64,000 nucleotides of DNA from sequence record NC_047776.2; one strand, written 5' to 3'. The stretch comes from Escherichia phage ESCO5. The notes beneath the pieces were generated by a model. That model made no database searches and was not told the origin of the DNA. It saw nothing but the letters and a program-made list of their open reading frames with translations. A program made the position numbers and the translations under genes. Numbering within the stretch: the first letter of the stretch is position 1; each line of letters starts with the position of its first letter. Positions 16,902 through 64,000 of this stretch are shown here, piece after piece.

Positions 16902-17132
16902 GTGTTAAATAAAATCGAAGAAGGTTGTATGGCATTTTTGGTAGATAACCCGTTTCCCTTTATGGTTAAGGTCCATGTAGGAGAGTATTTAGGTTATGAC
17001 GAATGGGATTGTAGTATCAATAGTGAAATGCACCACTACCAACCAACAATACTTAAGACGGATCAAATGGCGCGTATTACAGTAGAGGATGAATTGATCA
17101 TTGAGTTATACGAGAGAGCACTACACAAGTAA
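16902..17132 (+). CDS. Hypothetical protein
   Basis: ORF; GTG start at 16902 after TAGGAGG, alternative ATG at 16929. Confidence 0.4.
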   Translation: MLNKIEEGCMAFLVDNPFPFMVKVHVGEYLGYDEWDCSINSEMHHYQPTILKTDQMARITVEDELIIELYERALHK

Positions 17133-17173
17133 GCTAGAACCCACCTAAATCGAACAGAGACGCTCTAAAATAG

Positions 17174-17205
17174 AAAAGGCACCCACTTGGGTGCCTTTGT
17201 TTTAT
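17174..17205. terminator. Bidirectional terminator at the convergence point of the plus and minus blocks
   Basis: GGCACCC-ACTT-GGGTGCC hairpin flanked by an A-run upstream and a T-run downstream. Confidence 0.65.
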
Positions 17206-17474
17206 TCTTCGTTAGATTGCGTTTCAGACGCGTTAAATTCGGTTTCAGTGCAACTTGCTAGGTAACTTATGTTTCGCATCACTACAACTACAGGTGTTTG
17301 AAGTTTATCTTCTAGCCCAGCAGCCACTTGAGCCAAGGCATTATCAATATTTGATTTCCTAACACCTGTTCCATGCCCTGTTGCCAAGTAAAGATTACCT
17401 TCCCCTTTTTGTGTAGCATTAGCAAAGTAGTAAACGTAATGTGCAAGGTAGTAATCACGGATTTCTTCAGTCAT
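17202..17474 (-). CDS. Hypothetical protein
   Basis: ORF with SD AGGAG upstream. Confidence 0.45.
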   Translation of the reverse strand: MTEEIRDYYLAHYVYYFANATQKGEGNLYLATGHGTGVRKSNIDNALAQVAAGLEDKLQTPVVVVMRNISYLASCTETEFNASETQSNEE

Positions 17475-17485
17475 TTTGTTCTCCT

Positions 17486-17508
17486 AATAAGAAAGGGGCC
17501 GAAGCCCC
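17486..17508 (-). terminator. GGGGC-UUCG-GCCCC hairpin (terminator or processing site)
   Basis: Identical hairpin recurs at 29551-29564 and 36043-36056. Confidence 0.5.
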
Positions 17509-17517
17509 TTGAGTGGT

Positions 17518-18318
17518 TTATTTGTTTAAATGGTCTTCAACCATTTTGATAAAGCCTTCATCACTGAAGACTGTCCCTGCTTTCTCTCGGTAGACAAGCA
17601 CTCCACGTTCTTCGTAGAGAGTTTGTTCTACAAAATTCAAACCTGGGTTAACTACAACCATCTTAACCCCAATATTCAGGGCAGGGAAAAGTTCCCAATT
17701 GAAGTTGATAACTTGATTAGAGCAGCCCACAACGATAACCATGTCTTGAGCAGTTAGCGTGTCGAGGATTTGGTACATGTCGGTGTAGAACGGAGCATTT
17801 TCACCAAAAAACACCACGTTAGGTTTCACGTACTTGTAATCATCTACATCAATAGCAGCATAACCTACATCTTTGATGATTCGATTGTCTACAATCACTT
17901 CAGGCAGGAAGCCGTGAACATGCAGAACATCTTCATGAACAACACCTGCTTGTTCCAGAAGATCATCTACGTTTGTTGTGATGTTGATAACACGTTCACA
18001 ACCGTACTCTTGGAACCATTCCGCGATCTGGTAATGCGCAGCGTTAGGAGACACGCTATCCATCTCTACGCGACGTTTATTGTAGAAGTCGTGAGTTTTA
18101 CGGTAGAGGTTGTATCCCTCTGCATCTAATCCGCCAACAGCCCCAGGAACACACTGTTCTTGTTGGTATCCAGCACGGAAGTTGAAAATGTCGCATACTT
18201 CAGAGAGGTCATATTCGTCCCACAAAGCTTTACCGCTTGTGGTATCGGTGCGGAAAGTACGTACACCACTATCGGCGCTTAGACCAGCGCCGCTGATCAC
18301 TATTAATCGTCTTGGCAT
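17518..18318 (-). CDS. Sir2-family NAD-dependent deacetylase / ADP-ribosyltransferase-like protein
   Basis: GAGLSADSGVRTFR, TTNVDDL, HG and FFGE motifs typical of sirtuins. Confidence 0.6.
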   Translation of the reverse strand: MPRRLIVISGAGLSADSGVRTFRTDTTSGKALWDEYDLSEVCDIFNFRAGYQQEQCVPGAVGGLDAEGYNLYRKTHDFYNKRRVEMDSVSPNAAHYQIAEWFQEYGCERVINITTNVDDLLEQAGVVHEDVLHVHGFLPEVIVDNRIIKDVGYAAIDVDDYKYVKPNVVFFGENAPFYTDMYQILDTLTAQDMVIVVGCSNQVINFNWELFPALNIGVKMVVVNPGLNFVEQTLYEERGVLVYREKAGTVFSDEGFIKMVEDHLNK

Positions 18319-21493: not shown

Positions 21494-21551
21494 AATATTT
21501 CTCCTCTATTGGTTGATAGGTTAAGTTTATCAAGCTTCCAGATTTCTGTCA

Positions 21552-21578
21552 ATAAAAAACCCGCCGAAGCGGGTTATT
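21552..21578 (-). terminator. Rho-independent terminator (CCCGC-UUCG-GCGGG followed by U-run on the minus strand)
   Basis: Hairpin and T-run read from the sequence. Confidence 0.6.
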
Positions 21579-21583
21579 ATTTA

Positions 21584-21856
21584 CTAACACATTGAGGAAG
21601 AAGAGATCCAAACACCTCTTGTGGTTAAACCATTTTCATCCAACTCTACACCATAATCTTCACAAATAAAATCAATATAGTGATCTGCGGCTGGCGTTCC
21701 TGTAGGGTAATAAGTTTCTCCGTTACCGTAGTCACCTATCCAAGCTTGTTCCTGAAACTGTTCACAAAGTTCTTCAATTTCCTTACGAAACTTTCTTTGT
21801 GCTTGTTCCATCTCTTTAACTTTCTTTTTTATCAGTAGTTCGCCTTCAGACTCCAC
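21584..21856 (-). CDS. Small acidic protein; paralog A of a three-copy family
   Basis: Shares a C-terminal GVW(I/H)SS..C end and FICEDY/AICFEDW motif with the ORFs at 21866 and 22365. Confidence 0.5.
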   Translation of the reverse strand: MESEGELLIKKKVKEMEQAQRKFRKEIEELCEQFQEQAWIGDYGNGETYYPTGTPAADHYIDFICEDYGVELDENGLTTRGVWISSSSMC

Positions 21857-21865
21857 AATCTCTCC

Positions 21866-22084
21866 TTAACAGCCACTACTGTGCCAAACGCCTTGAGAAT
21901 TAACGACGAAACCCTCATCACCTTCACCATAACAAGAAGAGGATTGCCAATCTTCAAAACAGATTGCGTCATCTTCTAAACTAAGACCAAAACCAGCATC
22001 TTCAGCTTCTTTTGTAAGTTCGTCCACTAAAGCCATAATAGCTTGGGCTTTTTCAGTTAATTCTTCAACATTACGATAACTCAT
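21866..22084 (-). CDS. Small acidic protein; paralog B
   Basis: Start at ATG 22084 (TAATG overlap with upstream stop, SD GGAG); ends ...QGVWHSSGC. Confidence 0.5.
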   Translation of the reverse strand: MSYRNVEELTEKAQAIMALVDELTKEAEDAGFGLSLEDDAICFEDWQSSSCYGEGDEGFVVNSQGVWHSSGC

Positions 22085-22392
22085 TAGTATTTCTCCTCTG
22101 GTTGGAAAACGGAACGACAGGCCCACATAGAAGATTCTTTCAACTTAGTCTTTGCTATTGAAATTTGGTCAAGGCGGGTGGATATATTGGTAGACTCTTC
22201 CAAATCTTCACAATCATCCAGTTCAGTCCACAATTCAGACATTAGAGCATCAAAGATTAAGCCTAATCGAACTTCAGCATCTTTAATAGCATTCACTTTA
22301 CCAATTTTGTCATCGGTATGCGCCTTATAACCTTTGATATCTTCGATTCCCACTTTACCTCCTATTAACAACTTAAAGAAGATGGATGCCAA
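22084..22392 (-). CDS. Hypothetical protein (start uncertain)
   Basis: ORF between paralogs B and C; track start is TTG. Confidence 0.35.
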   Translation of the reverse strand: MASIFFKLLIGGKVGIEDIKGYKAHTDDKIGKVNAIKDAEVRLGLIFDALMSELWTELDDCEDLEESTNISTRLDQISIAKTKLKESSMWACRSVFQPEEKY

Positions 22393-27500: not shown

Positions 27501-27524
27501 TATTAATCTCCTATGTTTAAGAAA

Positions 27525-27541
27525 TGCCCCCGAAGGGGCAG
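27525..27541 (-). terminator. GCCCC-UUCG-GGGGC hairpin followed by U-rich tract on the minus strand
   Basis: Hairpin read from the sequence between two minus-strand genes. Confidence 0.5.
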
Positions 27542-27545
27542 TTTG

Positions 27546-28238
27546 TTAAATAGCGGTTCCTTCGAAATCCGCCACATTTACGAGATTAATATTTTCAGAT
27601 TTAGAAGTCAAGTTGTTTTCTGCAACAGATTTTTCTTCAGTATCCGCCTCGTTACCTGCCACGTTACGAGGTTCTTCTTCACCGTAGGGATTACCGAATT
27701 TCAAAAGATTGATCAATTCTTCTTTGGAGAAGTTTTCTAAATCATCATCTGTTAATTCAATAATCTCGTCTTGTTCTTCAATAAATGTTTCACCACCAGA
27801 AAAAGCATCTCGCTTTTTAGCTACTTCCATAGCCTGTTCTGGTGTTGCCCCTGCATCAAGAGCAGCTAAAGCAAAGTCTGACCCGCTTCCTACCGCATAA
27901 TATTCTTCATCAATCGGATATGCACGTGTTGGGTTATTACCTTCGTGCAGGAAAATACGTCCGTCTGGATGAACAACAAGTGCAATAAACTCTTCATCTT
28001 CTTTATCTGGATCAGAGTGAATCATCAAACCAGGGACAGCATCACGTGCTGCTTCGCACTGTAGATTTTGTTCAAACCATTGAAAGAAAGAAAGCACGGA
28101 GGTCAGACGACCAGCACCACCTACAAGGTAATCTCCAATTTTTCGGACCTTTTTGAAATTAATAGAATCTACACGTCCACCAAAAGTTACCTTACCGTCA
28201 CTCAAAATCTTATTTTTGGTTGCAATAATTGTCGTCAC
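27546..28238 (-). CDS. HslV-like N-terminal-threonine peptidase with acidic C-terminal extension
   Basis: MTTIIATKN start, KKVRK, GGAG and GSG motifs aligning with bacterial HslV. Confidence 0.55.
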   Translation of the reverse strand: MTTIIATKNKILSDGKVTFGGRVDSINFKKVRKIGDYLVGGAGRLTSVLSFFQWFEQNLQCEAARDAVPGLMIHSDPDKEDEEFIALVVHPDGRIFLHEGNNPTRAYPIDEEYYAVGSGSDFALAALDAGATPEQAMEVAKKRDAFSGGETFIEEQDEIIELTDDDLENFSKEELINLLKFGNPYGEEEPRNVAGNEADTEEKSVAENNLTSKSENINLVNVADFEGTAI

Positions 28239-28741
28239 TATTCTTCCTCCTCTGTTAATGTTTTAAGAACCGCTTTCCCGCCATTCACATATTTGCAGAT
28301 GTATTCTATCGCACGTAGTGTCTCTTTGTCAACAAAAATTTGATCAGACGTTGCGAGCGGGTTATTAAGAAGATCACTACAATCACGAACAAGCAGTGCT
28401 TTCTTATTAAACAAATTACTTAAGAACAGTAACTTCGCCTCTTCTTCTGTTATGTGCAGAAGGCTAGGATCGGAGCCAGCTATTCCTATTATACAATCAA
28501 ACAAGCTTTCTTTACTATCAGAAAGTTCTTGAAAATGGTTTAAAAGCCAATCTTCTCCTAGACACCAACATTTAAACATTTCCAGTTTATCTCGGAGGGT
28601 CATATTCTCTAAAGTAAGAGCAATCTCTTTTTCAATATGGTTTACACAAATTTGACGAAATTCGTTAGGTTTTACGAGTCCCGTTTGATAGCACTCATCT
28701 ATACCGCTTCTTCCGATAGCTATTGTTGCTACACCCATCAA
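28238..28741 (-). CDS. Hypothetical protein
   Basis: 167-aa ORF. Confidence 0.45.
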   Translation of the reverse strand: MMGVATIAIGRSGIDECYQTGLVKPNEFRQICVNHIEKEIALTLENMTLRDKLEMFKCWCLGEDWLLNHFQELSDSKESLFDCIIGIAGSDPSLLHITEEEAKLLFLSNLFNKKALLVRDCSDLLNNPLATSDQIFVDKETLRAIEYICKYVNGGKAVLKTLTEEEE

Positions 28742-28773: not shown

Positions 28774-29532
28774 TTAAATAAACACTTCAGTAATCAGTTT
28801 AGACAAACGTCCACGTTTATTATCGTCCGTTGTCAGTTCAACGTATCCAATAAAATCTACAATTGGCTCACGAACACCTTCTTCATTTTCTGGATATAAA
28901 AGTTCCAAAATTTGATGCAGACCATTGCTACGTTTTTTAATTGCATATGTCTGGCGAACATCGCCTAATACAATAACATGCGTATTAATACCTGCACGTT
29001 CAATAAGAAGTTTAAGTGTTTCTGTTGACATAAGTTGTGCTTCGTCAATAATGACGATTGTATTATCCAGGGTAGCCCCCAACAAATAGTTAGGAATATT
29101 CAATTCGATCTTACCTGATCCAATATCGTTTTCCAATTTGTTGGCTGTCATGAATTGCTGGAAAATACGTTTTGTAGATTCATAGTGTGCTGCTAGTTTA
29201 TCTGTTTTATCCCCAGACAAGAAACCAATCTGGTCATCTCCGACTTCAGTAGGGTTCTTGATAAAAAGTAGTTTACGGAAGTCTCCTGAACGAAGCATCT
29301 GCAAAGCTTTCCATAAAGCAACAGAGGTTTTACCAGTCCCTGCCGGAGCATTTACAACAGTCAAATCATTCCAGATCATGCTTTGAACAATCTTATTTTG
29401 GTCCCCTTCAGGCATAAATTCATCTAAACGGTAATCGTCATTACCTACCGCTTTTGCTGCATAACGGCTTTCAATCTTTGCTGAATTAGCCAGTTTCTGC
29501 CGTTGTGTTTTAGCTGCGGTTTTATTTCCCAT
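28774..29532 (-). CDS. phoH: PhoH-like ATPase
   Basis: P-loop GTGKTS and DEAQ box; start taken at internal ATG 29532 after SD GGAGTG (track start 29583 would cover the intergenic hairpin). Confidence 0.8.
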   Translation of the reverse strand: MGNKTAAKTQRQKLANSAKIESRYAAKAVGNDDYRLDEFMPEGDQNKIVQSMIWNDLTVVNAPAGTGKTSVALWKALQMLRSGDFRKLLFIKNPTEVGDDQIGFLSGDKTDKLAAHYESTKRIFQQFMTANKLENDIGSGKIELNIPNYLLGATLDNTIVIIDEAQLMSTETLKLLIERAGINTHVIVLGDVRQTYAIKKRSNGLHQILELLYPENEEGVREPIVDFIGYVELTTDDNKRGRLSKLITEVFI

Positions 29533-29550
29533 AGTAGCACTCCTTTTAGA

Positions 29551-29564
29551 AGGGGCCGAAGCCC
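29551..29564 (-). terminator. GGGGC-UUCG-GCCCC hairpin between lysozyme and phoH
   Basis: Same hairpin as at 17495 and 36043. Confidence 0.45.
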
Positions 29565-29569
29565 CTTTA

Positions 29570-30070
29570 TTAGTTGTAAGCATCTAAAGTTCCAGAAGTC
29601 AGAACTTTAATTACTCGTTCAGCACGGTTTGGCGTCTGGCTATACCATCGGCTTTTACGCATGTTTTTACCTGCTTGAGTATAATATGCATTGCTGATTA
29701 AAGTCAAGCTATTTTGAAACCCTTCAGCACCTTTTAACCCCAACTGGAAAACCATGTTGATTATTCCCAATTTACGAGTATCACTTACCTTATCATAGAT
29801 TGGTGATAAGATAGCACTGTTTTTTATGTCTCTCTTCACTTTTGCAACATCGTCAGCAAAGATTTGACGGGCTTCTTTTTCTGTGATAACTCCATTAGTC
29901 TTACGACCAAGAAGATTATCTAAGATTTGAATAGCCTTTGCTTTATCTTTTATTTTAGTCAGAAGGTGTCCTATGCCGACTGTCCAATAACCAAGATGGT
30001 CTTGATAAACAGTAAGCTTCAGTCCTTCATCGACTCGTAGCATATCAAACTCATCTACTACTTTAGCCAT
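29570..30070 (-). CDS. T4-type lysozyme (muramidase, likely endolysin)
   Basis: MLRVDEGLKL..Y.D..GYWTVGIGHLLT and NMVFQLG, SRWY.QTPNRA motifs matching T4 lysozyme. Confidence 0.85.
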   Translation of the reverse strand: MAKVVDEFDMLRVDEGLKLTVYQDHLGYWTVGIGHLLTKIKDKAKAIQILDNLLGRKTNGVITEKEARQIFADDVAKVKRDIKNSAILSPIYDKVSDTRKLGIINMVFQLGLKGAEGFQNSLTLISNAYYTQAGKNMRKSRWYSQTPNRAERVIKVLTSGTLDAYN

Positions 30071-30232: not shown

Positions 30233-30493
30233 TTACTCCGCAATTTGAGCCATGAGATCACGCAGTTCGGTAAAACCGCCTACGTATGTTACCTCCCCGT
30301 TCACTTCAGACAGAATTTGTGGAAATGTGCGTGGAGGAACTCCGGTAAGATCAACAACTGTTTTAGTCATTGATTCTAAATCATAGTCTTGGCCAAGACT
30401 TAAATATTCAAACTGTTTATTGCGCATAGTCAATAGTTGTTTTGACATTTCACAAAATTGACAGTTAGGTTTACCAAAAATTACAAATTCCAT
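30233..30493 (-). CDS. Glutaredoxin (T4 NrdC-like)
   Basis: CQFC active site and C-terminal TFPQI...GGFTELRDL resembling T4 glutaredoxin. Confidence 0.75.
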   Translation of the reverse strand: MEFVIFGKPNCQFCEMSKQLLTMRNKQFEYLSLGQDYDLESMTKTVVDLTGVPPRTFPQILSEVNGEVTYVGGFTELRDLMAQIAE

Positions 30494-31335
30494 TACCTCT
30501 CCTTATTAAGTAATACTGCTAAAGACTGTTCAATACCTTTATTTAAATCTGATTTTGTAAGATAGTGACTGGTTACTAGTTGTGACTTCACCGGACGTGC
30601 TGCTGGAGCATTATAGGTTGAAGCTGATACCGCCGATATCTTAACAGGTTCTGGCATCTGTGTCAAGATCTTTTCCGCAAACTCCGCCCAAGAAATAAGA
30701 TGGCTTCCTGCAAAATGGTAAGTCTTAACAGACCTTGACCAACCTGTTTTTAATACTTCAAAAATAGCTTCTGCTAAATCTGGAGCATATGTTGGACAAG
30801 AGAACTGATCAGCAACAATAATAAAATCACGTTGTCCATCATTATAGCGAGACAACATAGTTTTTAGAAAGTTATTTCCAAATTCGCTATATACCGAGGC
30901 TGTTCGAATAATATATGCATTTGGGTTAACTCCTCGCACCATTTTTTCACCAAGTTTTTTCGTATACCCATAATTGTTTATTGGGTTAGGTGCAGTATCT
31001 TCAAAAATAGGATGAGAATAATTAAAAATATAGTCTGTAGAAATATGCACAAAATCAATTTTAAGTTTGCTGCACACTGCCGCAATATTTGCAGGTCCAT
31101 ATGCATTAACAGCCAAAGCAGTAGCAAAATCATGTTCTGCTTTATCTACAGCCGTATAAGCGGCGCAATTAATAACACCATCTACATAATCTTCAACAAT
31201 AGCGTTTCGCACAGCTTCAAAATTTGTAATATCTACACGTTCTTTAGGATAAATTAAAGATACATTTGAAGGAACCACTTTACGTAAAGCTTGTCCCAGT
31301 TGTCCATTACCACCCAATACCAGATATGTTAGCAT
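30493..31335 (-). CDS. rmlD: dTDP-4-dehydrorhamnose reductase
   Basis: NCAAYTAVDKAE, STDYIF, YGYTK and DQF.CPTYA motifs characteristic of RmlD. Confidence 0.85.
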   Translation of the reverse strand: MLTYLVLGGNGQLGQALRKVVPSNVSLIYPKERVDITNFEAVRNAIVEDYVDGVINCAAYTAVDKAEHDFATALAVNAYGPANIAAVCSKLKIDFVHISTDYIFNYSHPIFEDTAPNPINNYGYTKKLGEKMVRGVNPNAYIIRTASVYSEFGNNFLKTMLSRYNDGQRDFIIVADQFSCPTYAPDLAEAIFEVLKTGWSRSVKTYHFAGSHLISWAEFAEKILTQMPEPVKISAVSASTYNAPAARPVKSQLVTSHYLTKSDLNKGIEQSLAVLLNKER

Positions 31336-31895
31336 ACACCCTCGCTACGTAACTGTTGAAAAGATTTAGCCATTGCATCTTTTGTTGATAAAATAGGTTT
31401 AAAACCTTCGTCAAAAATCATATCGAAGCCCCAATCGATACCTATGTCAGGATCATCCCAACGTAAACTTTGTTCACTAGAAGGGTCGTATGGAGTTGTG
31501 CATTTGTATTCAAAGATCGCATCCATACTCAAAACTATAAAACCATGTGCCAAACCAGGAGGAAGCCAAAACTGCGTATGGTGTCGTGCACGAAGAACAA
31601 CACCGTCCCAAGCACCGTAAGTTGGACTATCTTTACGTAAATCTACAGCGAAATCCAATACTTCTCCACTTACACAACGAACAAGCTTACCTTGCGGATT
31701 ATTTGTTTGAAAGTGCATTCCTCGCAAAACACCGAAGTTTGATTTAGACATATTATCTTGAACGAAAGTTTGCTTACCAATGATATCTTCGTATTTTTGT
31801 TCATTGTATGTTTCTAAAAAGAAACCACGGTCGTCTTTATAAACGTCTGGTTTGATAATTACCGCACCTTCAATTTTTGTTTTTTCTACTTTCAT
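31329..31895 (-). CDS. rmlC: dTDP-4-dehydrorhamnose 3,5-epimerase
   Basis: DDRGFF, FVQDN.S and GVLRGMHFQ motifs of RmlC; start at ATG 31895 (4-nt overlap with rmlA stop) rather than the longer track ORF. Confidence 0.85.
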
Positions 31896-32770
31896 TTTCC
31901 CTCCGCTAATTTGAGTAGGTATTGCCCGTACTCTGTTTTCTTCAGTGAGTTTCCATGGTAGACCAAAGTCTCTAAAGAAATCCACCCTTTTTTGAAAGCA
32001 ATTTCTTCCAGGCACGCAATCTTCAATCCTTGACAGTTCTCAATAGTCTGCACGAATTGACCAGCTTCCATCAGACTGGCGTGTGTTCCTGTGTCAAGCC
32101 AAGTAAATCCTCGTCCGAGAACTTCCACTTGTAACTTCCTGTCTTCGAGGTAGCTGCGATTGATATCAGTGATCTCCAGTTCTCCACGCGCGGAAGGGGT
32201 TACTTCTAATGCACGTTGAATAACAGAGTTATCATAGAAATACAAACCTGTGACAGCATAATCTGATTTAGGATTTTCAGGTTTCTCTTCAATAGAAATA
32301 ACTTGACGATTACTCCCAAATTCAACCACACCGAATCGTTCAGGATCTTTCACCAAACACCCGAAGATACAAGCTCCGCCCCAAACATCTACCATCTCAC
32401 TAGCGTCAATCAGTAGTTTACCAAAGCTTTGTCCGAAGAATAGGTTGTCACCTAAAATAAGAGCAACAGAGTCTTCTCCGATAAAATCTTTACCGATGAT
32501 GAAAGCGTCCGCAAGACCTCGTGGCTTGGATTGGATTGCGTAAGTGAGTTTTATCCCAAACATAGACCCATCTCCAAGAAGATACTCAAAGTCTTCCTGA
32601 TCGCCTGGTGTGGTGATGATTAAGATATCCTTAATGTCAGCCAACATCAATACCGATAAAGGGTAGTAGATCATGGGTTTGTCATACACAGGGAGCAATT
32701 GCTTGCTCACACTGCGTGTTACCGGATGAAGGCGGGTTCCACTTCCTCCCGCCAAAATAATACCTTTCAT
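31892..32770 (-). CDS. rmlA: Glucose-1-phosphate thymidylyltransferase
   Basis: [19 protein letters not shown]-terminus and overall RmlA pattern. Confidence 0.9.
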
Positions 32771-32778
32771 AACCCTCC

Positions 32779-33771
32779 TTAAATCTTCTCACTCCACCAT
32801 TGAGGGTTGTTTAAGTACCATTCAATCGTTGAGTAGAGATCTTGTTCAAATGTAGAGTTTGCACTCCAACCCAGTTCAGACTCTATTTTAGAAGGATTGA
32901 TTTCATAACGCAAGTCATGTCCTTTACGATCTTCAACAAAAGTTATCAAGTTGGAAGAAGGGTAGGTTCCTGCTTCTGGATGTACAGCATCTATGTAGTC
33001 ACAAACCATATAGATGATCTCCATATTGGTTTTGGGATTACGTGTTCCAACATTATACGTTTGACCTGGTTCTCCACCTGTTGCCACTTGAAGAATAGCT
33101 CGCGCATGATCCTCAACAAAAAGCCAGTCTCGCACCTGATCGCCTTTACCATACACCGGAATCTCTTTATTCGTCAAGATACTTGTGATGATTTTTGGGA
33201 TCAGCTTTTCTGGATGTTGATAAGGTCCAAAGTTATTGGAGCAGTTGGTTATCACAACAGGTAAACCGTAGGTACGGTACCAAGCTTTCACAAGATGGTC
33301 AGATGCTGCCTTAGACGCACTGTACGGGCTTGAAGGGGCATAAGCTGTCTCTTCGGTAAAGGGAACGCCAGAGTCTGCCATATCGCCGTACACTTCGTCT
33401 GTGGAGACATGTACGAACATCTTAAGTTTATTTTTTGGGAGGAGCCTTGCAGCTTCCAATAAATTGTATGTACCAATAATATTGGAGTCGATGAAAACTC
33501 GTGGATTCTTGATAGAATTATCCACATGACTCTCTGCCGCTAAGTGAATGATGAAATCGGGATTGCACTCTACTACTAAACTTTTGACCTGGGTTTCGTT
33601 TGCCAAATCTGTTATGCTCAGTTTAACGTGAGTGATATCGCCTACATTCTCAATATCTGCTGCATAGCCCATCTTATCAACGACAAAAACTTCGTTATTG
33701 GGATCTTGACAAAGAGAGCGCACCACGGCACTCCCAATAAAACCAAGACCACCTGTTACCAGATAGCGCAT
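32779..33771 (-). CDS. rmlB: dTDP-glucose 4,6-dehydratase
   Basis: [11 protein letters not shown]-binding motif, YSASKA catalytic motif, size 330 aa. Confidence 0.9.
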
Positions 33772-33780
33772 CAGTTCTCC

Positions 33781-34107
33781 TTACCAGACATGTTGAGAAA
33801 TAATAGTTTCCGTTTTAATGTTATATTTTTCAAGTAGCTTTGCATAGGCTTCTTTTGCATTCTCATTCAATTGCTCAAGATCTACAGCTATGCTTCCTTC
33901 TCCTCCTTCTAAATCAAGGCCATATATGCAATAAGACTCATCCGCATCGTAGAAAGGAGAGATGCGGCTTAAGTCAAGACCTTCTTGTAAGAACCAGTTA
34001 AAATCTCCGTCAAATTCTTCTTCAATTCTAGGATCTTCTCCTACAGCCTCTTCCCACTTATTTAAAGGTGCACCCTGTAACATACGCCATTCGATATCAA
34101 TACCCAT
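33781..34107 (-). CDS. Hypothetical acidic protein
   Basis: 108-aa ORF. Confidence 0.45.
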   Translation of the reverse strand: MGIDIEWRMLQGAPLNKWEEAVGEDPRIEEEFDGDFNWFLQEGLDLSRISPFYDADESYCIYGLDLEGGEGSIAVDLEQLNENAKEAYAKLLEKYNIKTETIISQHVW

Positions 34108-55945: not shown

Positions 55946-55952
55946 ATAACTA

Positions 55953-55982
55953 TTGACAAACGTATCCTTCATATGTTAGGAT
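55953..55982 (+). promoter_or_regulatory. Sigma70-like promoter with extended -10 (TTGACA, 18 nt spacer, TGnTAGGAT)
   Basis: Shares the AACTATTGACAA -35 context with the promoters at 56541 and 57509. Confidence 0.4.
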
Positions 55983-56192
55983 ACGTTCATCAAGTGTGGT
56001 AACAGGGTCGTTGACTTTTGTTAAGAGAGGCTTGCACTGCGGATAGTGTTAGAGACTACTTCTTCAGAGGTTAGCTACCAAAGAGGAAAAGGAATAGTCT
56101 CGGCTCAAGAACTTTTACGCTGAAAGTTGGGCTTGGTCTTAGAGAATGTAGCGGTTCCCTACAATCGTCAGCGTCTCTGTTACCACATTTAT

Positions 56193-56267
56193 GGCCCTGT
56201 AGCTCAATGGGAGAGCTGTCGGCTCATAACCGATAGGTAGCTGGATCGAAACCAGCCAGGGCCACCA
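56193..56267 (+). tRNA. tRNA with CAU anticodon (Met or lysidine-modified Ile2 type)
   Basis: Hand-folded cloverleaf: acceptor GGCCCTG/CAGGGCC, anticodon loop CTCATAA, encoded CCA; resembles E. coli tRNA-Ile2. Confidence 0.7.
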
Positions 56268-56269
56268 AC

Positions 56270-56344
56270 GTCTTTATGGTGTAATGGATAGCACAGGAGT
56301 CTTCTAAACTCTTAGTCAAGGTTCGATTCCTTGTAAAGACACCA
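56270..56344 (+). tRNA. tRNA-Arg (anticodon TCT)
   Basis: Acceptor GTCTTTA/TAAAGAC, anticodon loop CTTCTAA, T-loop TTCGATT, encoded CCA. Confidence 0.7.
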
Positions 56345-56540
56345 GAACATTTTAACATGAATTAGCTCAAGTGATTTGAACCCACTACTGATCATGGTGG
56401 CAGAGAATGAGGCAAGTATGTCAGACATTATAAACAAAGGCCACGGTTATATTAGAAGACATAAATGCTCGAAGAGCACCGTTCGTGGAGAACGGGGGTT
56501 GGTGGAGTCACCATTCATGGTAAAATGTTTTAAAAAACTA

Positions 56541-56570
56541 TTGACAACAAACATTATTTTATGTTAGATT
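56541..56570 (+). promoter_or_regulatory. Sigma70-like promoter with extended -10 (TTGACA, 18 nt spacer, TGnTAGATT)
   Basis: Immediately upstream of tRNA-Ser at 56579. Confidence 0.45.
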
Positions 56571-56578
56571 ATAAGTAT

Positions 56579-56669
56579 GGAAGGGCAAATCGACGTGGCG
56601 ACGAAAACGGTCTTGAAAACCGCCGAGCTTGAAAGAGCCTTGGGAGTTCGACTCTCCCTCCTTCCGCCA
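56579..56669 (+). tRNA. tRNA-Ser (anticodon TGA), type II
   Basis: Anticodon arm CGGTCTTGAAAACCG matches E. coli tRNA-Ser(UGA); long variable arm; discriminator G; encoded CCA. Confidence 0.7.
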
Positions 56670-56674
56670 GATTA

Positions 56675-56760
56675 GGTAGATTGGTGAAATGGTAGCCACG
56701 ACAGTTTGCTAAACTGTAGTCGGAAACGGCGTGTAGGTTCGAGTCCTACATCTACCGCCA
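56675..56760 (+). tRNA. tRNA-Ser (anticodon GCT), type II
   Basis: Acceptor GGTAGAT/ATCTACC, anticodon stem-loop ACAGT-TTGCTAA-ACTGT, long variable arm, discriminator G. Confidence 0.7.
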
Positions 56761-56890
56761 AGTTCTTTTTAATGTAGCTTACTTTAGCAGAGTAAATCTT
56801 CGGCAAGTGGCGGTAACCACTTTACCGATACCTCATAGTTAGTGGTGCGAACACTGGCTATTTTAAAAAGAATTTAAATATTAGTATTTA

Positions 56891-56978
56891 GGTGAGTTAA
56901 TTCCGTAGGGGTAGCGGGGCAGACTGTAAATCTGTTATCATTGCGATTCGGGTGGTTCGACTCCATCACTCACCACCA
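56891..56978 (+). tRNA. tRNA-Tyr (anticodon GTA), type II
   Basis: Anticodon arm GCAGACTGTAAATCTG matches E. coli tRNA-Tyr; long variable arm; discriminator A. Confidence 0.7.
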
Positions 56979-56984
56979 AATTAA

Positions 56985-57070
56985 GATGAGTTGGCTGAAT
57001 GGTTTAAGCGGCGGACTGTTAATCCGTGTTCGAAAGAACAATATAGGTTCGAATCCTATACTCATCGCCA
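56985..57070 (+). tRNA. Type-II-shaped tRNA with GTT (Asn) anticodon and discriminator G
   Basis: Acceptor GATGAGT/ACTCATC, 3-bp D-stem, anticodon arm GCGGACTGTTAATCCGT as in E. coli tRNA-Asn, extra GTTC-GAAA-GAAC hairpin in the variable region, T-arm ATAGG-TTCGAAT-CCTAT. Confidence 0.55.
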
Positions 57071-57077
57071 GAATTAT

Positions 57078-57152
57078 GGACTTGTAGAGTTAAGGTAAAC
57101 CCCCAGTCGCCAATAGGCTTCTGGAATTGCAGGTATCGAATCCTGCCGAGTC
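57078..57152 (+). pseudogene. tRNA-like remnant with aberrant anticodon domain
   Basis: Acceptor-like GGACTTG/CGAGTCC and T-arm-like GCAGG-TATCGAAT-CCTGC (8-nt loop); no 7-nt anticodon loop could be folded. Confidence 0.3.
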
Positions 57153-57160
57153 CCAGCATT

Positions 57161-57235
57161 GCTCCTATAGTATAATGGCTATTACAACGGTTTTGTAATC
57201 CGTGGATCTCTGTTCGATTCAGTGTGGGAGCACCA
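57161..57235 (+). tRNA. tRNA-Thr (anticodon TGT)
   Basis: Acceptor GCTCCTA/TGGGAGC, anticodon loop TTTGTAA, T-loop TTCGATT, encoded CCA. Confidence 0.6.
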
Positions 57236-57508
57236 ACACAACATTAAGAGCACTGTGATTGATCGTCGTATCCTGTGCACAAGGTCTGCTCGAAAGACAG
57301 TGTTCTTAGTATTGTGTTGATCACAAAAAGAGTCACCCGAAACTTGACCGGAGTAGGGTTGGATGGGGCAAAATGAGAAGCGGCTCTCCCATCGACAGCA
57401 ACGAAGAATAATATTTGACTTTTGTTTTGTATTATTTTAAGTTAGCTTACCGAACGTAGGGCTAGTCACCCAACGGGATACTCGTCACTGTCCCACTCAA
57501 TAAAACTA

Positions 57509-57538
57509 TTGACAACCAATAGTAAAATGTAGTATAGT
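57509..57538 (+). promoter_or_regulatory. Sigma70-like promoter (TTGACA, 18 nt spacer, TATAGT)
   Basis: Consensus -35 and near-consensus -10 about 12 nt upstream of tRNA-Gly. Confidence 0.55.
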
Positions 57539-57549
57539 AAAGATGTAGG

Positions 57550-57623
57550 GCGTTCTTGGTGTAGCGGTAGCATTCCGTCCTTCCAAGTCGGCGGCACGAG
57601 TTCGATCCTCGTAGAACGCTCCA
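57550..57623 (+). tRNA. tRNA-Gly (anticodon TCC)
   Basis: Acceptor GCGTTCT/AGAACGC, anticodon loop CTTCCAA, T-arm ACGAG-TTCGATC-CTCGT, discriminator T, encoded CCA. Confidence 0.7.
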
Positions 57624-57721
57624 AATTATTTAATAAAGGGTTGCCAGAAAACTTTCTCTTTTACTCATGGTTTTCTCCTTCTCTCACACTTCTTCTGGTT
57701 GCCCTTCATTAAATGATTTAT

Positions 57722-57797
57722 TGGTTTGTAGTGTAGTCCGGTAGCACACGACACTTTGACTGTCGTAGGTTTGGTTCAAATCCAGACAGACCAGCCA
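57722..57797 (+). tRNA. tRNA-Gln (anticodon TTG)
   Basis: U1-A72 start and discriminator G as in E. coli tRNA-Gln; anticodon stem-loop CGACA-CTTTGAC-TGTCG; encoded CCA. Confidence 0.7.
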
Positions 57798-57890
57798 TAT
57801 AACAAAGGTGAGTCACTACCTTAAGTGTGAAGTTAAAAACGAGGAGCCGCCGAACACTTTCTTTTGCGGTGTACCTTTAGAATGTTATCA

Positions 57891-57975
57891 CGGGACGTAG
57901 CACAGCTTGGTAGTGCGCTCGCTTTGGGAGCGAGAGGTCGAGTGTTCGAATCACTCCGTCCCGACCAATTAAATG
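57891..57975 (+). tRNA. tRNA-Pro (anticodon TGG)
   Basis: Acceptor CGGGACG/CGTCCCG, D-stem GCAC/GTGC, anticodon stem-loop CTCGC-TTTGGGA-GCGAG, T-loop TTCGAAT, encoded CCA. Confidence 0.7.
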
Positions 57976-63542: not shown

Positions 63543-64000
63543 ATGGAACTCAATAAAGATACACTGTGGGAACTCTTCAAAACCTTCGCTGGTTTTAAAG
63601 AGAATTCTGAATCCCAACAAGATTCTATACCATCTCAAAAACCTGAAACTTTAGTCAAACAAAATAAATTTGATGAAGAAAAGATGCAGGTTATTGAGGT
63701 CTTGTATTGTCCACCTGAAGAAGACGATCTCCACGGAGAGCGCATGTCTGATTTGGAAATCAGGAAGATGGTTGACAACTTCAATGAGAATATTACCAAC
63801 ATTAGTGGTAATCTTGGTCACATGAAGAACACCGATAAGTTTTCTCCAATTAAAGCTTGGGTAAATGAAGTTGATTGTTACATTGGTGACGAACTCGTTG
63901 TGGAAGGAACTCCCCTCGTTAAAATCCAATTCAACGACCCTGAATTATATCAAGCTCGTAAAGACGGCGTTCTTAAAGGTTTGAGTATAGGCGCAATGGG
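63543..64000 (+). CDS. Head-morphogenesis protein (possibly prohead protease or scaffold), 3'-truncated by the window
   Basis: Open frame from ATG 63543 to the window end; call is positional. Confidence 0.35.
   Translation, partial: MELNKDTLWELFKTFAGFKENSESQQDSIPSQKPETLVKQNKFDEEKMQVIEVLYCPPEEDDLHGERMSDLEIRKMVDNFNENITNISGNLGHMKNTDKFSPIKAWVNEVDCYIGDELVVEGTPLVKIQFNDPELYQARKDGVLKGLSIGAM

Follow-up and report, generated by a model that had tools for sequence, protein, structure and literature searches.

The peptidase gene and its neighbours

The stretch of DNA analysed here (the window) comprises 64,000 nucleotides of Escherichia phage ESCO5 (NC_047776.2) and carries, within a long block of minus-strand genes, a gene that encodes a proteasome-like peptidase. 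The features of the locus are collected in Table 1. An earlier note, made from the sequence alone, had placed an HslV-like peptidase at this position, and this part of it stands: one intact open reading frame is present, with the correction that the gene is read from the minus strand. The start codon, preceded by a strong ribosome-binding site, is a GTG at 28238, followed by ACG ACA ATT, which gives the N-terminus (f)Met-Thr-Thr-Ile-Ile-Ala-Thr-Lys-Asn, and no longer in-frame ORF is found in the sequence at the locus. The choice of this GTG is supported by the MTTI N-terminus with which 111 of 150 family representatives open. The copy of phage P0023 is annotated in GenBank as a protein of 159 residues starting at Met72, a start call that is almost certainly wrong because it would remove the nucleophile. 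The GTG overlaps the TAG stop codon of the preceding ORF by one base (TAGTG); such a stop/start overlap is typical of translational coupling and suggests that the gene for the 166-residue protein and the peptidase gene may be coupled in this way.

Table 1. Features at the peptidase locus, with positions in the window (PPH, phage proteasome-homologue family)
Feature	Position	Strand	Details and basis
Proteasome-like Ntn peptidase CDS, probable PPH-type long form	27546..28238	-	230 aa plus stop, complete; ORF list, phrog_1040, PF00227, AlphaFold, Foldseek
Predicted catalytic core, aa 1-157	27768..28238	-	T2, D14, K30, G40/G43, G117-S118-G119, R143-D-A-F-S-G-G149
Conserved helical hairpin, aa 158-185	27684..27767	-	Predicted helices 164-169 and 172-181; pLDDT ~89-92; about 130 extension-bearing homologues
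Acidic tail, predicted disordered, aa 186-230	27549..27683	-	Net charge -8; pLDDT 41-55
Shine-Dalgarno sequence GAGGAGG	28246..28252	-	7 nt before the peptidase GTG; read from the sequence
166-aa helical protein gene	28238..28738	-	phrog_14834; apparently coupled to the peptidase gene; all-helical orphan
PhoH-like P-loop ATPase gene	28774..29583	-	PF02562, E=1.2e-36
Terminator-like hairpin TGCCCC-TTCG-GGGGCA, then TTTCTT	27518..27540	-	5 nt after the peptidase stop; pattern scan

The 3.1 kb around the gene are 100% identical to the corresponding DNA of Escherichia phage vB_EcoM_REC (genus Phapecoctavirus), and an identity of 99% or more is reached with a total of 58 records, which are phAPEC8-like by the names shown (Stephanstirmvirinae, Phapecoctavirus). 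In RefSeq, the product is named 'peptidase HslV family' in phages ESCO13 (HOR21_gp079), Schickermooser, anhysbys and phi92, and the phi92 homologue, gp058, carries the additional note 'putative 20S proteasome'. Because these records name it, the gene and its family assignment are already public knowledge. The peptidase is an ordinary, annotated member of its family, and its identification, which reads the existing annotation correctly, does not amount to a discovery and is unsurprising to a specialist. For the two-part architecture of its C-terminal extension, the conservation of that extension across about 60 clusters, the linkage to phoH and the natural deletion described below, we found no published description; we regard these as modest refinements.

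Locally, the genes are arranged on the minus strand in the order lysozyme, PhoH-like ATPase, 166-residue protein and peptidase, and the block also holds Sir2-like genes, DNA methyltransferases, a DprA-like gene, a Ser/Thr phosphatase, genes for dTDP-rhamnose synthesis, ribonucleotide reductase, a ligase and exonucleases. The 166-residue protein is strongly conserved within the Stephanstirmvirinae and is predicted with confidence to form a helical bundle, the model of which had no informative structural neighbours; outside the Stephanstirmvirinae, it was undetectable save for one doubtful analogue in a Vibrio phage. It is a possible partner of the peptidase. The nearest NCBIfam models of the PhoH-like protein are PhoH and the RNA 5'-3' helicase PhoH2, which marks it as a helicase-type P-loop NTPase and not an AAA+ unfoldase.

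The peptidase gene probably ends its transcription unit, because the terminator-like hairpin that follows it recurs: a GC-rich hairpin with a T-run, of unrelated sequence, was seen by eye at the same place in most of 10 other loci from E. coli, Vibrio and Aeromonas phages. A pattern scan also detected a sigma70-like sequence, TTGACA-18-TAGAAT, at 28332..28303 with 11 of 12 consensus matches. As an internal promoter, this sequence is probably a chance occurrence, since the conserved codons for VDKETLRAIEY in the upstream gene run through it and phi92 has only a degraded version of it.

Fold, active site and relation to HslV

The family phrog_1040 ('peptidase HslV family', PHROG) matches residues 1-229 of the peptidase with E=1.6e-63, and the Pfam model PF00227 (Proteasome) scores 25.6 bits, above its gathering cut-off of 22.4. 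The best sequence match in the PDB is HslV of Thermotoga maritima (1m4y, E=4.9e-9), and further HslVs follow at about 1e-5. Resemblance of this degree to HslV and the proteasome lies far beyond what chance would give. An AlphaFold2 model, for which 42 homologues were present in the alignment, has a mean pLDDT of 85.9; every ten-residue block of the core scores at least 88, and most score more than 93. When this model was compared with the PDB by Foldseek, the matches were BPH (5ovt; the top match, E=1.5e-10), HslV (6kui, 1m4y, 1g3i and 1e94) and archaeal and eukaryotic 20S beta subunits, with E-values around 1e-10, a probability of 1.00 and TM-scores of 0.65-0.68 normalised to the target. In BFVD, 45 predicted viral structures are similar to the model at E<=0.001. 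As modelled, the peptidase has the alpha-beta-beta-alpha Ntn fold of proteasome beta subunits and HslV. The HslV-like fold that the earlier note had claimed is, thus, borne out by phrog_1040, PF00227, 1m4y and the Foldseek matches, and structure prediction, which that note had named as a possible source of refutation, returned the proteasome/HslV fold.

The core helices of the model are H1 (residues 45-67), H3 (120-128) and H4 (133-143). The 42 homologues, the most distant of which has 27% identity, all share T2, T3, I4, D14, K30, G117-S118-G119, A123, G130, A136 and A140. In an alignment with E. coli HslV, the sequence of which was checked against the PDB, T1, D17, K33, G45 and S124 of HslV are equivalent to T2, D14, K30, G40 and S118 of the peptidase. 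The RDAFSGG sequence at residues 143-149 aligns with RDAYSGG of proteasome beta5 (Asp166, Ser169, Gly170), and proteasome Thr1, Asp17, Lys33, Ser129 and Asp166/Ser169 thereby correspond to peptidase T2, D14, K30, S118 and D144/S147. Because the active-site set of a threonine peptidase, with the Asp/Lys triad of the nucleophile and an oxyanion Gly, is complete and invariant, the catalytic machinery appears to be complete and under strong constraint. Threonine is a permitted second residue for methionine aminopeptidase, and E. coli HslV, which begins MTTIV, matures by removal of the methionine; by analogy, exposure of Thr2 is to be expected in the phage protein as well. The threonine nucleophile postulated in the earlier note would, therefore, be suitably placed once Met has been removed, with the invariant Asp/Lys/Ser/Gly set around it.

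The peptidase and HslV have the Ntn fold in common (TM about 0.68 normalised to the target), as well as the Met-Thr-Thr start that exposes Thr1, but the two proteins differ in several respects. The first hairpin of the peptidase is four residues shorter, RDAFSGG stands where HslV carries AGDICIY, and the C-terminal extension of the phage protein is absent from HslV, as the earlier note had said. The NCBIfam HslV equivalog models score more than 100 bits under their cut-offs, at about one fifth of the required values (NF003964, 32.2 bits versus 137; TIGR03692, 31.4 versus 157.75). In the model, H1 is followed by 16 residues of coil (68-83, VPGLMIHSDPDKEDEE; pLDDT ~88-93) and then by a strand (84-89), and the helix H2 of HslV is missing.

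The missing helix bears on the question of whether the peptidase could be served by HslU. HslV residues K28, R83, R86 and L88, which we take to be important for the interaction with HslU, align to S25, D76, K79 and D81 of the peptidase. The pocket of HslV that receives the C-terminus of HslU lies between subunits and is formed by F54 and F57 of H1, A79 and K80 of H2, and Q114 (PMC6429459). These five residues align to L49, F52, M72, I73 and P108 of the peptidase, so that only the position of F57 is kept. Judged from this alignment and from a model of the monomer, the peptidase is unlikely to dock onto host HslU. The assembly with host HslU that the earlier note had considered is, thus, not favoured by the missing H2, by the single pocket position kept or by the equivalog scores, and the peptidase is better not viewed as an HslV that borrows HslU from its host.

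A closer match is found among the phage homologues of the proteasome. Fuchs, Alva and Lupas (2021) described a phage family, PPH, which occurs in tailed phages or in prophage-like surroundings in their hosts and has a length of about 140 residues, and loss of helix H2 is a hallmark of PPH and of RPC, the latter having a C-terminal extension and being reported from proteobacterial genomes only (PMC8665760). Set against these published descriptions, the sequence of the peptidase fits PPH in its host range, N-terminus, triad and H2 loss, but not in its length: it is encoded by a tailed phage (Caudovirales-type), begins with MTT, has the Thr/Asp/Lys triad and a compact core without H2, and its nearest relatives outside the long-form subfamily are phage proteins of about 140-150 residues, whereas the peptidase itself has 230 residues, among them those of an acidic tail and of a helical hairpin that is conserved, and relatives of it add whole domains. 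With 230 residues and an extension of 73, it is, therefore, a long-form relative and not a typical PPH. It would be set apart from RPC in that the long form was seen in phage sequence only. BPH (5ovs/5ovt) and 20S beta subunits differ from the peptidase in that both helices, H1 and H2, are present and an acidic extension at the C-terminus is absent, and their sequence identity with it is only about 20%. The RDxxSGG motif is common to the peptidase and the beta subunits, and neither BPH nor the peptidase has a known ATPase partner.

A search of 1.84 billion cluster representatives with a profile recovered 11,212 relatives at E<=0.001 and 5,301 at E<=1e-10, which indicates that phage homologues of the proteasome are widespread. 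Most of the best-scoring relatives have about 140-150 residues. At E<=1e-30 there are 62 clusters, mostly long forms that bear the extension; nearly all have 180-350 residues and match beyond the core. With phage-type representatives (about 140-165 residues) the peptidase reaches a median score of 53 bits, and with E. coli HslV it reaches 26 bits. We conclude, with a probability of roughly 0.85, that the protein is a proteasome-like hydrolase of the PPH type and not an orthologue of HslV.

A two-part extension and the distribution of the long form

The extension beyond the core carries a net charge of -14 and has a pI of about 4.05. The earlier note had described it as an acidic extension of 60 residues. 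It is real and acidic; it comprises about 73 residues (158-230), because the core ends near residue 157, and it is not uniform, being composed of a predicted helical hairpin and a tail predicted to be disordered (Table 1). The hairpin has the motif hydrophobic-(T/S)-x-E-x-hydrophobic-x-x-hydrophobic-(S/T)-(K/R)-E-(E/Q)-L-(L/I)-x-L-L, preceded by an acidic run, and it can be recognised as conserved in about 60 clusters at 50% identity. When 30 hairpins were combined into a profile, no match was found among PDB sequences (best E=0.14).

The tail is conserved in character and not in sequence. Its identity to homologues is mostly 0-18% (33% with the closest), versus 32-90% for the core. In the first 30 residues of 132 tails, D and E together account for 30% on average and K and R for 7%, and 90% of these segments are net negative. 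The extreme C-terminal residues of the long forms vary (TAI, NLS, HNA, VDN and others), which argues against a self-activating HslU-like or HbYX-like tip, and we rejected this possibility. The most plausible reading of the extension is that a conserved element for docking or packing is followed by a flexible acidic linker that is able to carry variable modules; hairpin and tail together resemble an interaction module.

In more distant members, which come from metagenomes and from phages of Vibrio, Aeromonas and Klebsiella, a further domain of 80-190 residues follows the acidic linker, which is the same linker as the acidic tail of the ESCO5 protein. None of these added domains is matched by Pfam, and a SAP/HeH-like motif in the C-terminal regions of the Vibrio, Aeromonas and Klebsiella phage homologues was an impression only and is unsupported.

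Relatives of the peptidase are held by 232 phage records. When 185,579 species genomes of bacteria and archaea were scanned for the long form, in a way that required exact matches to two subfamily-specific motifs and that divergent relatives would, therefore, escape, there was a single match, on a contig of 425 bp that is 100% identical to phage sequence and is almost certainly contamination. By these sequence counts, the long form appears to be restricted to phages.

A proposed role and its alternatives

We propose that methionine aminopeptidase exposes Thr2 and that the protein would then be active as a threonine peptidase during infection. It would probably assemble into rings through the well-conserved H3/H4 face and may operate without host HslU, because the apical surface on which HslU docks in HslV has been rebuilt. 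C-termini in the proteasome-like superfamily face away from the ring and are possible interaction sites (PMC8665760). The hairpin and the acidic tail may likewise project from the apical or outer surface, where they could recruit a partner or a substrate, or gate access. The function would be accessory and not essential, with a benefit such as host takeover or counter-defence. Stated in full, namely as a phage-specific, proteasome-like Ntn threonine hydrolase that acts independently of HslU in an accessory role, this account has, in our judgement, a somewhat better than even chance of being right. A literature search found no published functional work (activity assay, oligomeric state or substrates) on phage PPH or HslV-like proteins, only mentions at the level of annotation.

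One could envision that the protein is an Ntn hydrolase without being a general protease, and that it serves as a specific processing enzyme, as a transpeptidase or ligase of the connectase kind, or as an amidase of non-protein substrates. The proteasome-like superfamily includes connectase, a protein ligase, and some of the new proteasome homologues may not build closed multi-ring chambers (PMC8665760). A protein that has lost H2 and gained C-terminal modules would fit such a non-canonical assembly. The peptidase, however, keeps the full proteasome-type active site, including RDxxSGG, and the H3/H4 block is its most conserved part. In proteasomes, H3/H4 makes the ring-ring contacts. We consider this alternative unlikely.

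Another scenario is that the peptidase belongs to a dedicated phage complex with the PhoH-like ATPase, the 166-residue helical protein or both, in which hairpin and tail would serve as the docking element. The gene order is in its favour. We inspected 87 related loci, 15 of which encode the long form; these 15 peptidases are 34-99% identical to the ESCO5 protein. All 15 have a gene for a PhoH homologue upstream, on the same strand and at a distance of 0.9-4.1 kb, but only 2 of about 65 loci that encode short or other forms have one within 5 kb. The linkage itself is real. The overlap of the helical-protein gene with the start of the peptidase gene and the terminator-like hairpin that closes the unit point in the same direction. 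The 15 loci, however, stem from about four to five related phage lineages, so that the linkage may reflect an inherited gene order and not selection, and the number of intervening genes varies from one to six. Furthermore, PhoH is a helicase-type NTPase and not an unfoldase, and the helical protein is nearly confined to the Stephanstirmvirinae. We regard a dedicated complex as quite unlikely.

A natural deletion bears on the same block. The genome of phage VEcB (MT932211 / NC_052663) contains, in the region 21498-22298 of MT932211, one continuous in-frame PhoH::peptidase fusion ORF, in which about 112 residues from the start of PhoH are followed by the last 155 residues of the peptidase. PhoH has thereby lost its C-terminal half and the peptidase its catalytic N-terminus, and the gene of the helical protein is gone entirely; this is exactly the block of the proposed complex, which counts in favour of that complex. 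The record OZ035773.1, also named VEcB, holds a full-length and differently diverged copy of the peptidase, and an error of assembly might have produced the deletion. Provided that the assembly is correct, the PhoH-to-peptidase module looks dispensable in culture because VEcB carries this deletion, which suggests that knockouts would be viable. The host phages of the phAPEC8/phi92 group are easily grown on E. coli and offer a convenient model for a first functional study of the family.

A stronger version of the complex can be formulated, in which the long-form peptidase, the helical protein and PhoH constitute a degradation module independent of HslU, and hairpin and tail form a built-in adaptor that docks the peptidase ring onto a ring of the PhoH ATPase or baits host or defence proteins that bind nucleic acids. 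We offer it as a speculation that is very probably wrong. If true, it would give phage PhoH its first concrete partner; PhoH is a long-standing marker gene of phages for which we know of no function. With respect to other ATPases, the closely related phage genomes of ESCO13 and Schickermooser, which were inspected save for about 10 kb, show no annotated gene of the HslU, ClpX or Lon type in the parts covered. The sole AAA-type ATPase in these parts (Schickermooser 132886-134025; PF00004, E=8.7e-7; weak similarity to Rix7/Afg2) was rejected as a dedicated unfoldase partner, since it lies about 100 kb away and its distribution does not track that of the peptidase: its homologues occur mainly in phages of Enterococcus, Bacillus, Staphylococcus and Lactococcus, and relatives of the peptidase occur in phages of Vibrio, Caulobacter, Aeromonas and Rhizobium.

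Alternatively, the peptidase might be a functional replacement of HslV, with a dodecamer that docks on host HslU and redirects ATP-dependent proteolysis of the HslUV type. The E. coli host possesses HslU, the N-terminus MTTII resembles that of E. coli HslV, and the best sequence relatives among solved structures are HslVs. The HslU-tail pocket, on the other hand, has lost H2 in the model and four of its five residues, the equivalog scores are far too low, and the closest relatives of the peptidase are phage PPH-like proteins of about 140 residues and not HslV. We, therefore, hold this reading to be very unlikely and keep to a PPH-type hydrolase.

It is also conceivable that the acidic tail acts as a mimic of nucleic acid, like Ocr or ArdA, and blocks DNA-binding host or defence proteins or feeds them to the peptidase. 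The retention of acidity in 90% of the family tails, although their sequence is unconserved, and the location of the gene within a block of DNA methyltransferase and nucleotide-metabolism genes would be consistent with this role. The tail, however, is short, is predicted to be disordered and does not have the ordered charge pattern of known DNA mimics, and acidic low-complexity linkers are common. The PADLOC models of defence systems, a library that does not include anti-defence proteins, gave no match to the peptidase. Mimicry is, in our view, highly improbable.

Finally, a role as the prohead (capsid maturation) protease, for which nothing speaks beyond the fact that the protein is a phage-encoded peptidase, is rejected with near certainty on gene context, given that the head module has a gene for a prohead-type protease (Peptidase_S78_2; 63543->64000, plus strand) immediately behind that of the portal protein, whereas the HslV-like gene is found at a distance of 35 kb, on the opposite strand and in the company of nucleotide-metabolism genes.

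Start codon and upstream sequence of the peptidase gene

In the record of Escherichia phage vB_EcoM-Ro121c4YLVW, the same peptidase gene is annotated from an internal methionine, Met72, giving a product of 159 aa (protein P0023) that lacks the Thr nucleophile, D14 and K30. The Met72 annotation is almost certainly a start-codon error, which arose because the peptidase gene begins with GTG.

A sequence resembling a sigma70 promoter (see the table below) lies within the upstream gene, 65 nt 5' of the peptidase start. The match falls on that gene's conserved VDKETLRAIEY codons and is not preserved in phi92; it has therefore probably arisen incidentally from the protein-coding sequence.

Coordinates of features in the ESCO5 window and in related phages
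Feature	Location	Strand	Remarks
Sir2-like genes (2, adjacent)	window ~17100-18300	-	ESCO13 gp056-gp057
sigma70-like promoter, TTGACA-18 nt-TAGAAT	window 28303-28332	-	11/12 consensus matches
dTDP-rhamnose pathway genes (4)	window ~30493-34000	-	ESCO13 gp085-gp088
tRNA cluster (10)	Schickermooser 55947-57871 = window ~56000-57900	+	Schickermooser record's annotation
prohead-type serine protease gene	window 63543-64000, cut by window end	+	Peptidase_S78_2, E=5.7e-11
PhoH::HslV-like in-frame fusion (protein P0066)	MT932211.1 21498-22298		Escherichia phage VEcB
divergent proteasome-like gene 4L372D_228	L006:2932-3483		Aeromonas phage 4L372D; weak PF00227 match

An apparent natural fusion and a paired gene

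In Escherichia phage VEcB, an apparently natural deletion of ~1.1 kb has removed the catalytic threonine together with the entire phrog_14834 gene, so that the PhoH N-terminus (~residues 1-112) runs in frame into the last 155 residues of the HslV-like protein. The RefSeq product name of the fusion is still 'peptidase HslV family'.

Aeromonas phage 4L372D carries two proteasome-like genes side by side, one of them very divergent. The divergent gene, 4L372D_228, adjoins the long-form peptidase gene (L006:3501-4385) on its upstream side and encodes 183 aa with the N-terminus (M)TCIIAL; its PF00227 match, at E=0.013, spans almost the whole profile. One possibility is that the paired paralogues could form a hetero-oligomeric particle.

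Other gene groups in the window

The dTDP-rhamnose set, located just upstream of the lysozyme-PhoH-peptidase block, is complete, comprising glucose-1-phosphate thymidylyltransferase, two nucleotide-sugar epimerase/dehydratase-type genes and dTDP-4-dehydrorhamnose 3,5-epimerase. Four glycosyltransferase genes reside elsewhere in the phage genome, away from this set, and together these genes could point to a glycosylation function, acting on phage DNA, on virion proteins or on the surface of the host. The Sir2-like pair (NAD-dependent deacetylase family) belongs to the same minus-strand block as the peptidase. Sir2 domains are better known from anti-phage defence systems, and the phage copies may thus have a counter-defence or NAD-related role. 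In Schickermooser, the annotated tRNAs (Met, Arg, Ser, Asn, Thr, Gly, Gln, Pro, Ile, Met) separate the minus-strand gene block from the lysis and head modules.

Suspect public records

Records named for Campylobacter phage B15 (MG065650.1), Pseudomonas phage PsgM04F (OR584014.1) and Klebsiella and Acinetobacter phages show 86-99.9% identity to the E. coli phage region, and a 425-bp Lysobacteraceae contig from a bacterial assembly (JAPMLR010000072.1, locus L088) is 100% identical to it. The hosts named are unrelated, and host mislabelling or contamination is the likely source of these matches. The prohead-type protease gene, immediately 3' of the portal gene, is labelled 'DNA methyltransferase' in the Schickermooser RefSeq record, which looks like a mis-annotation.
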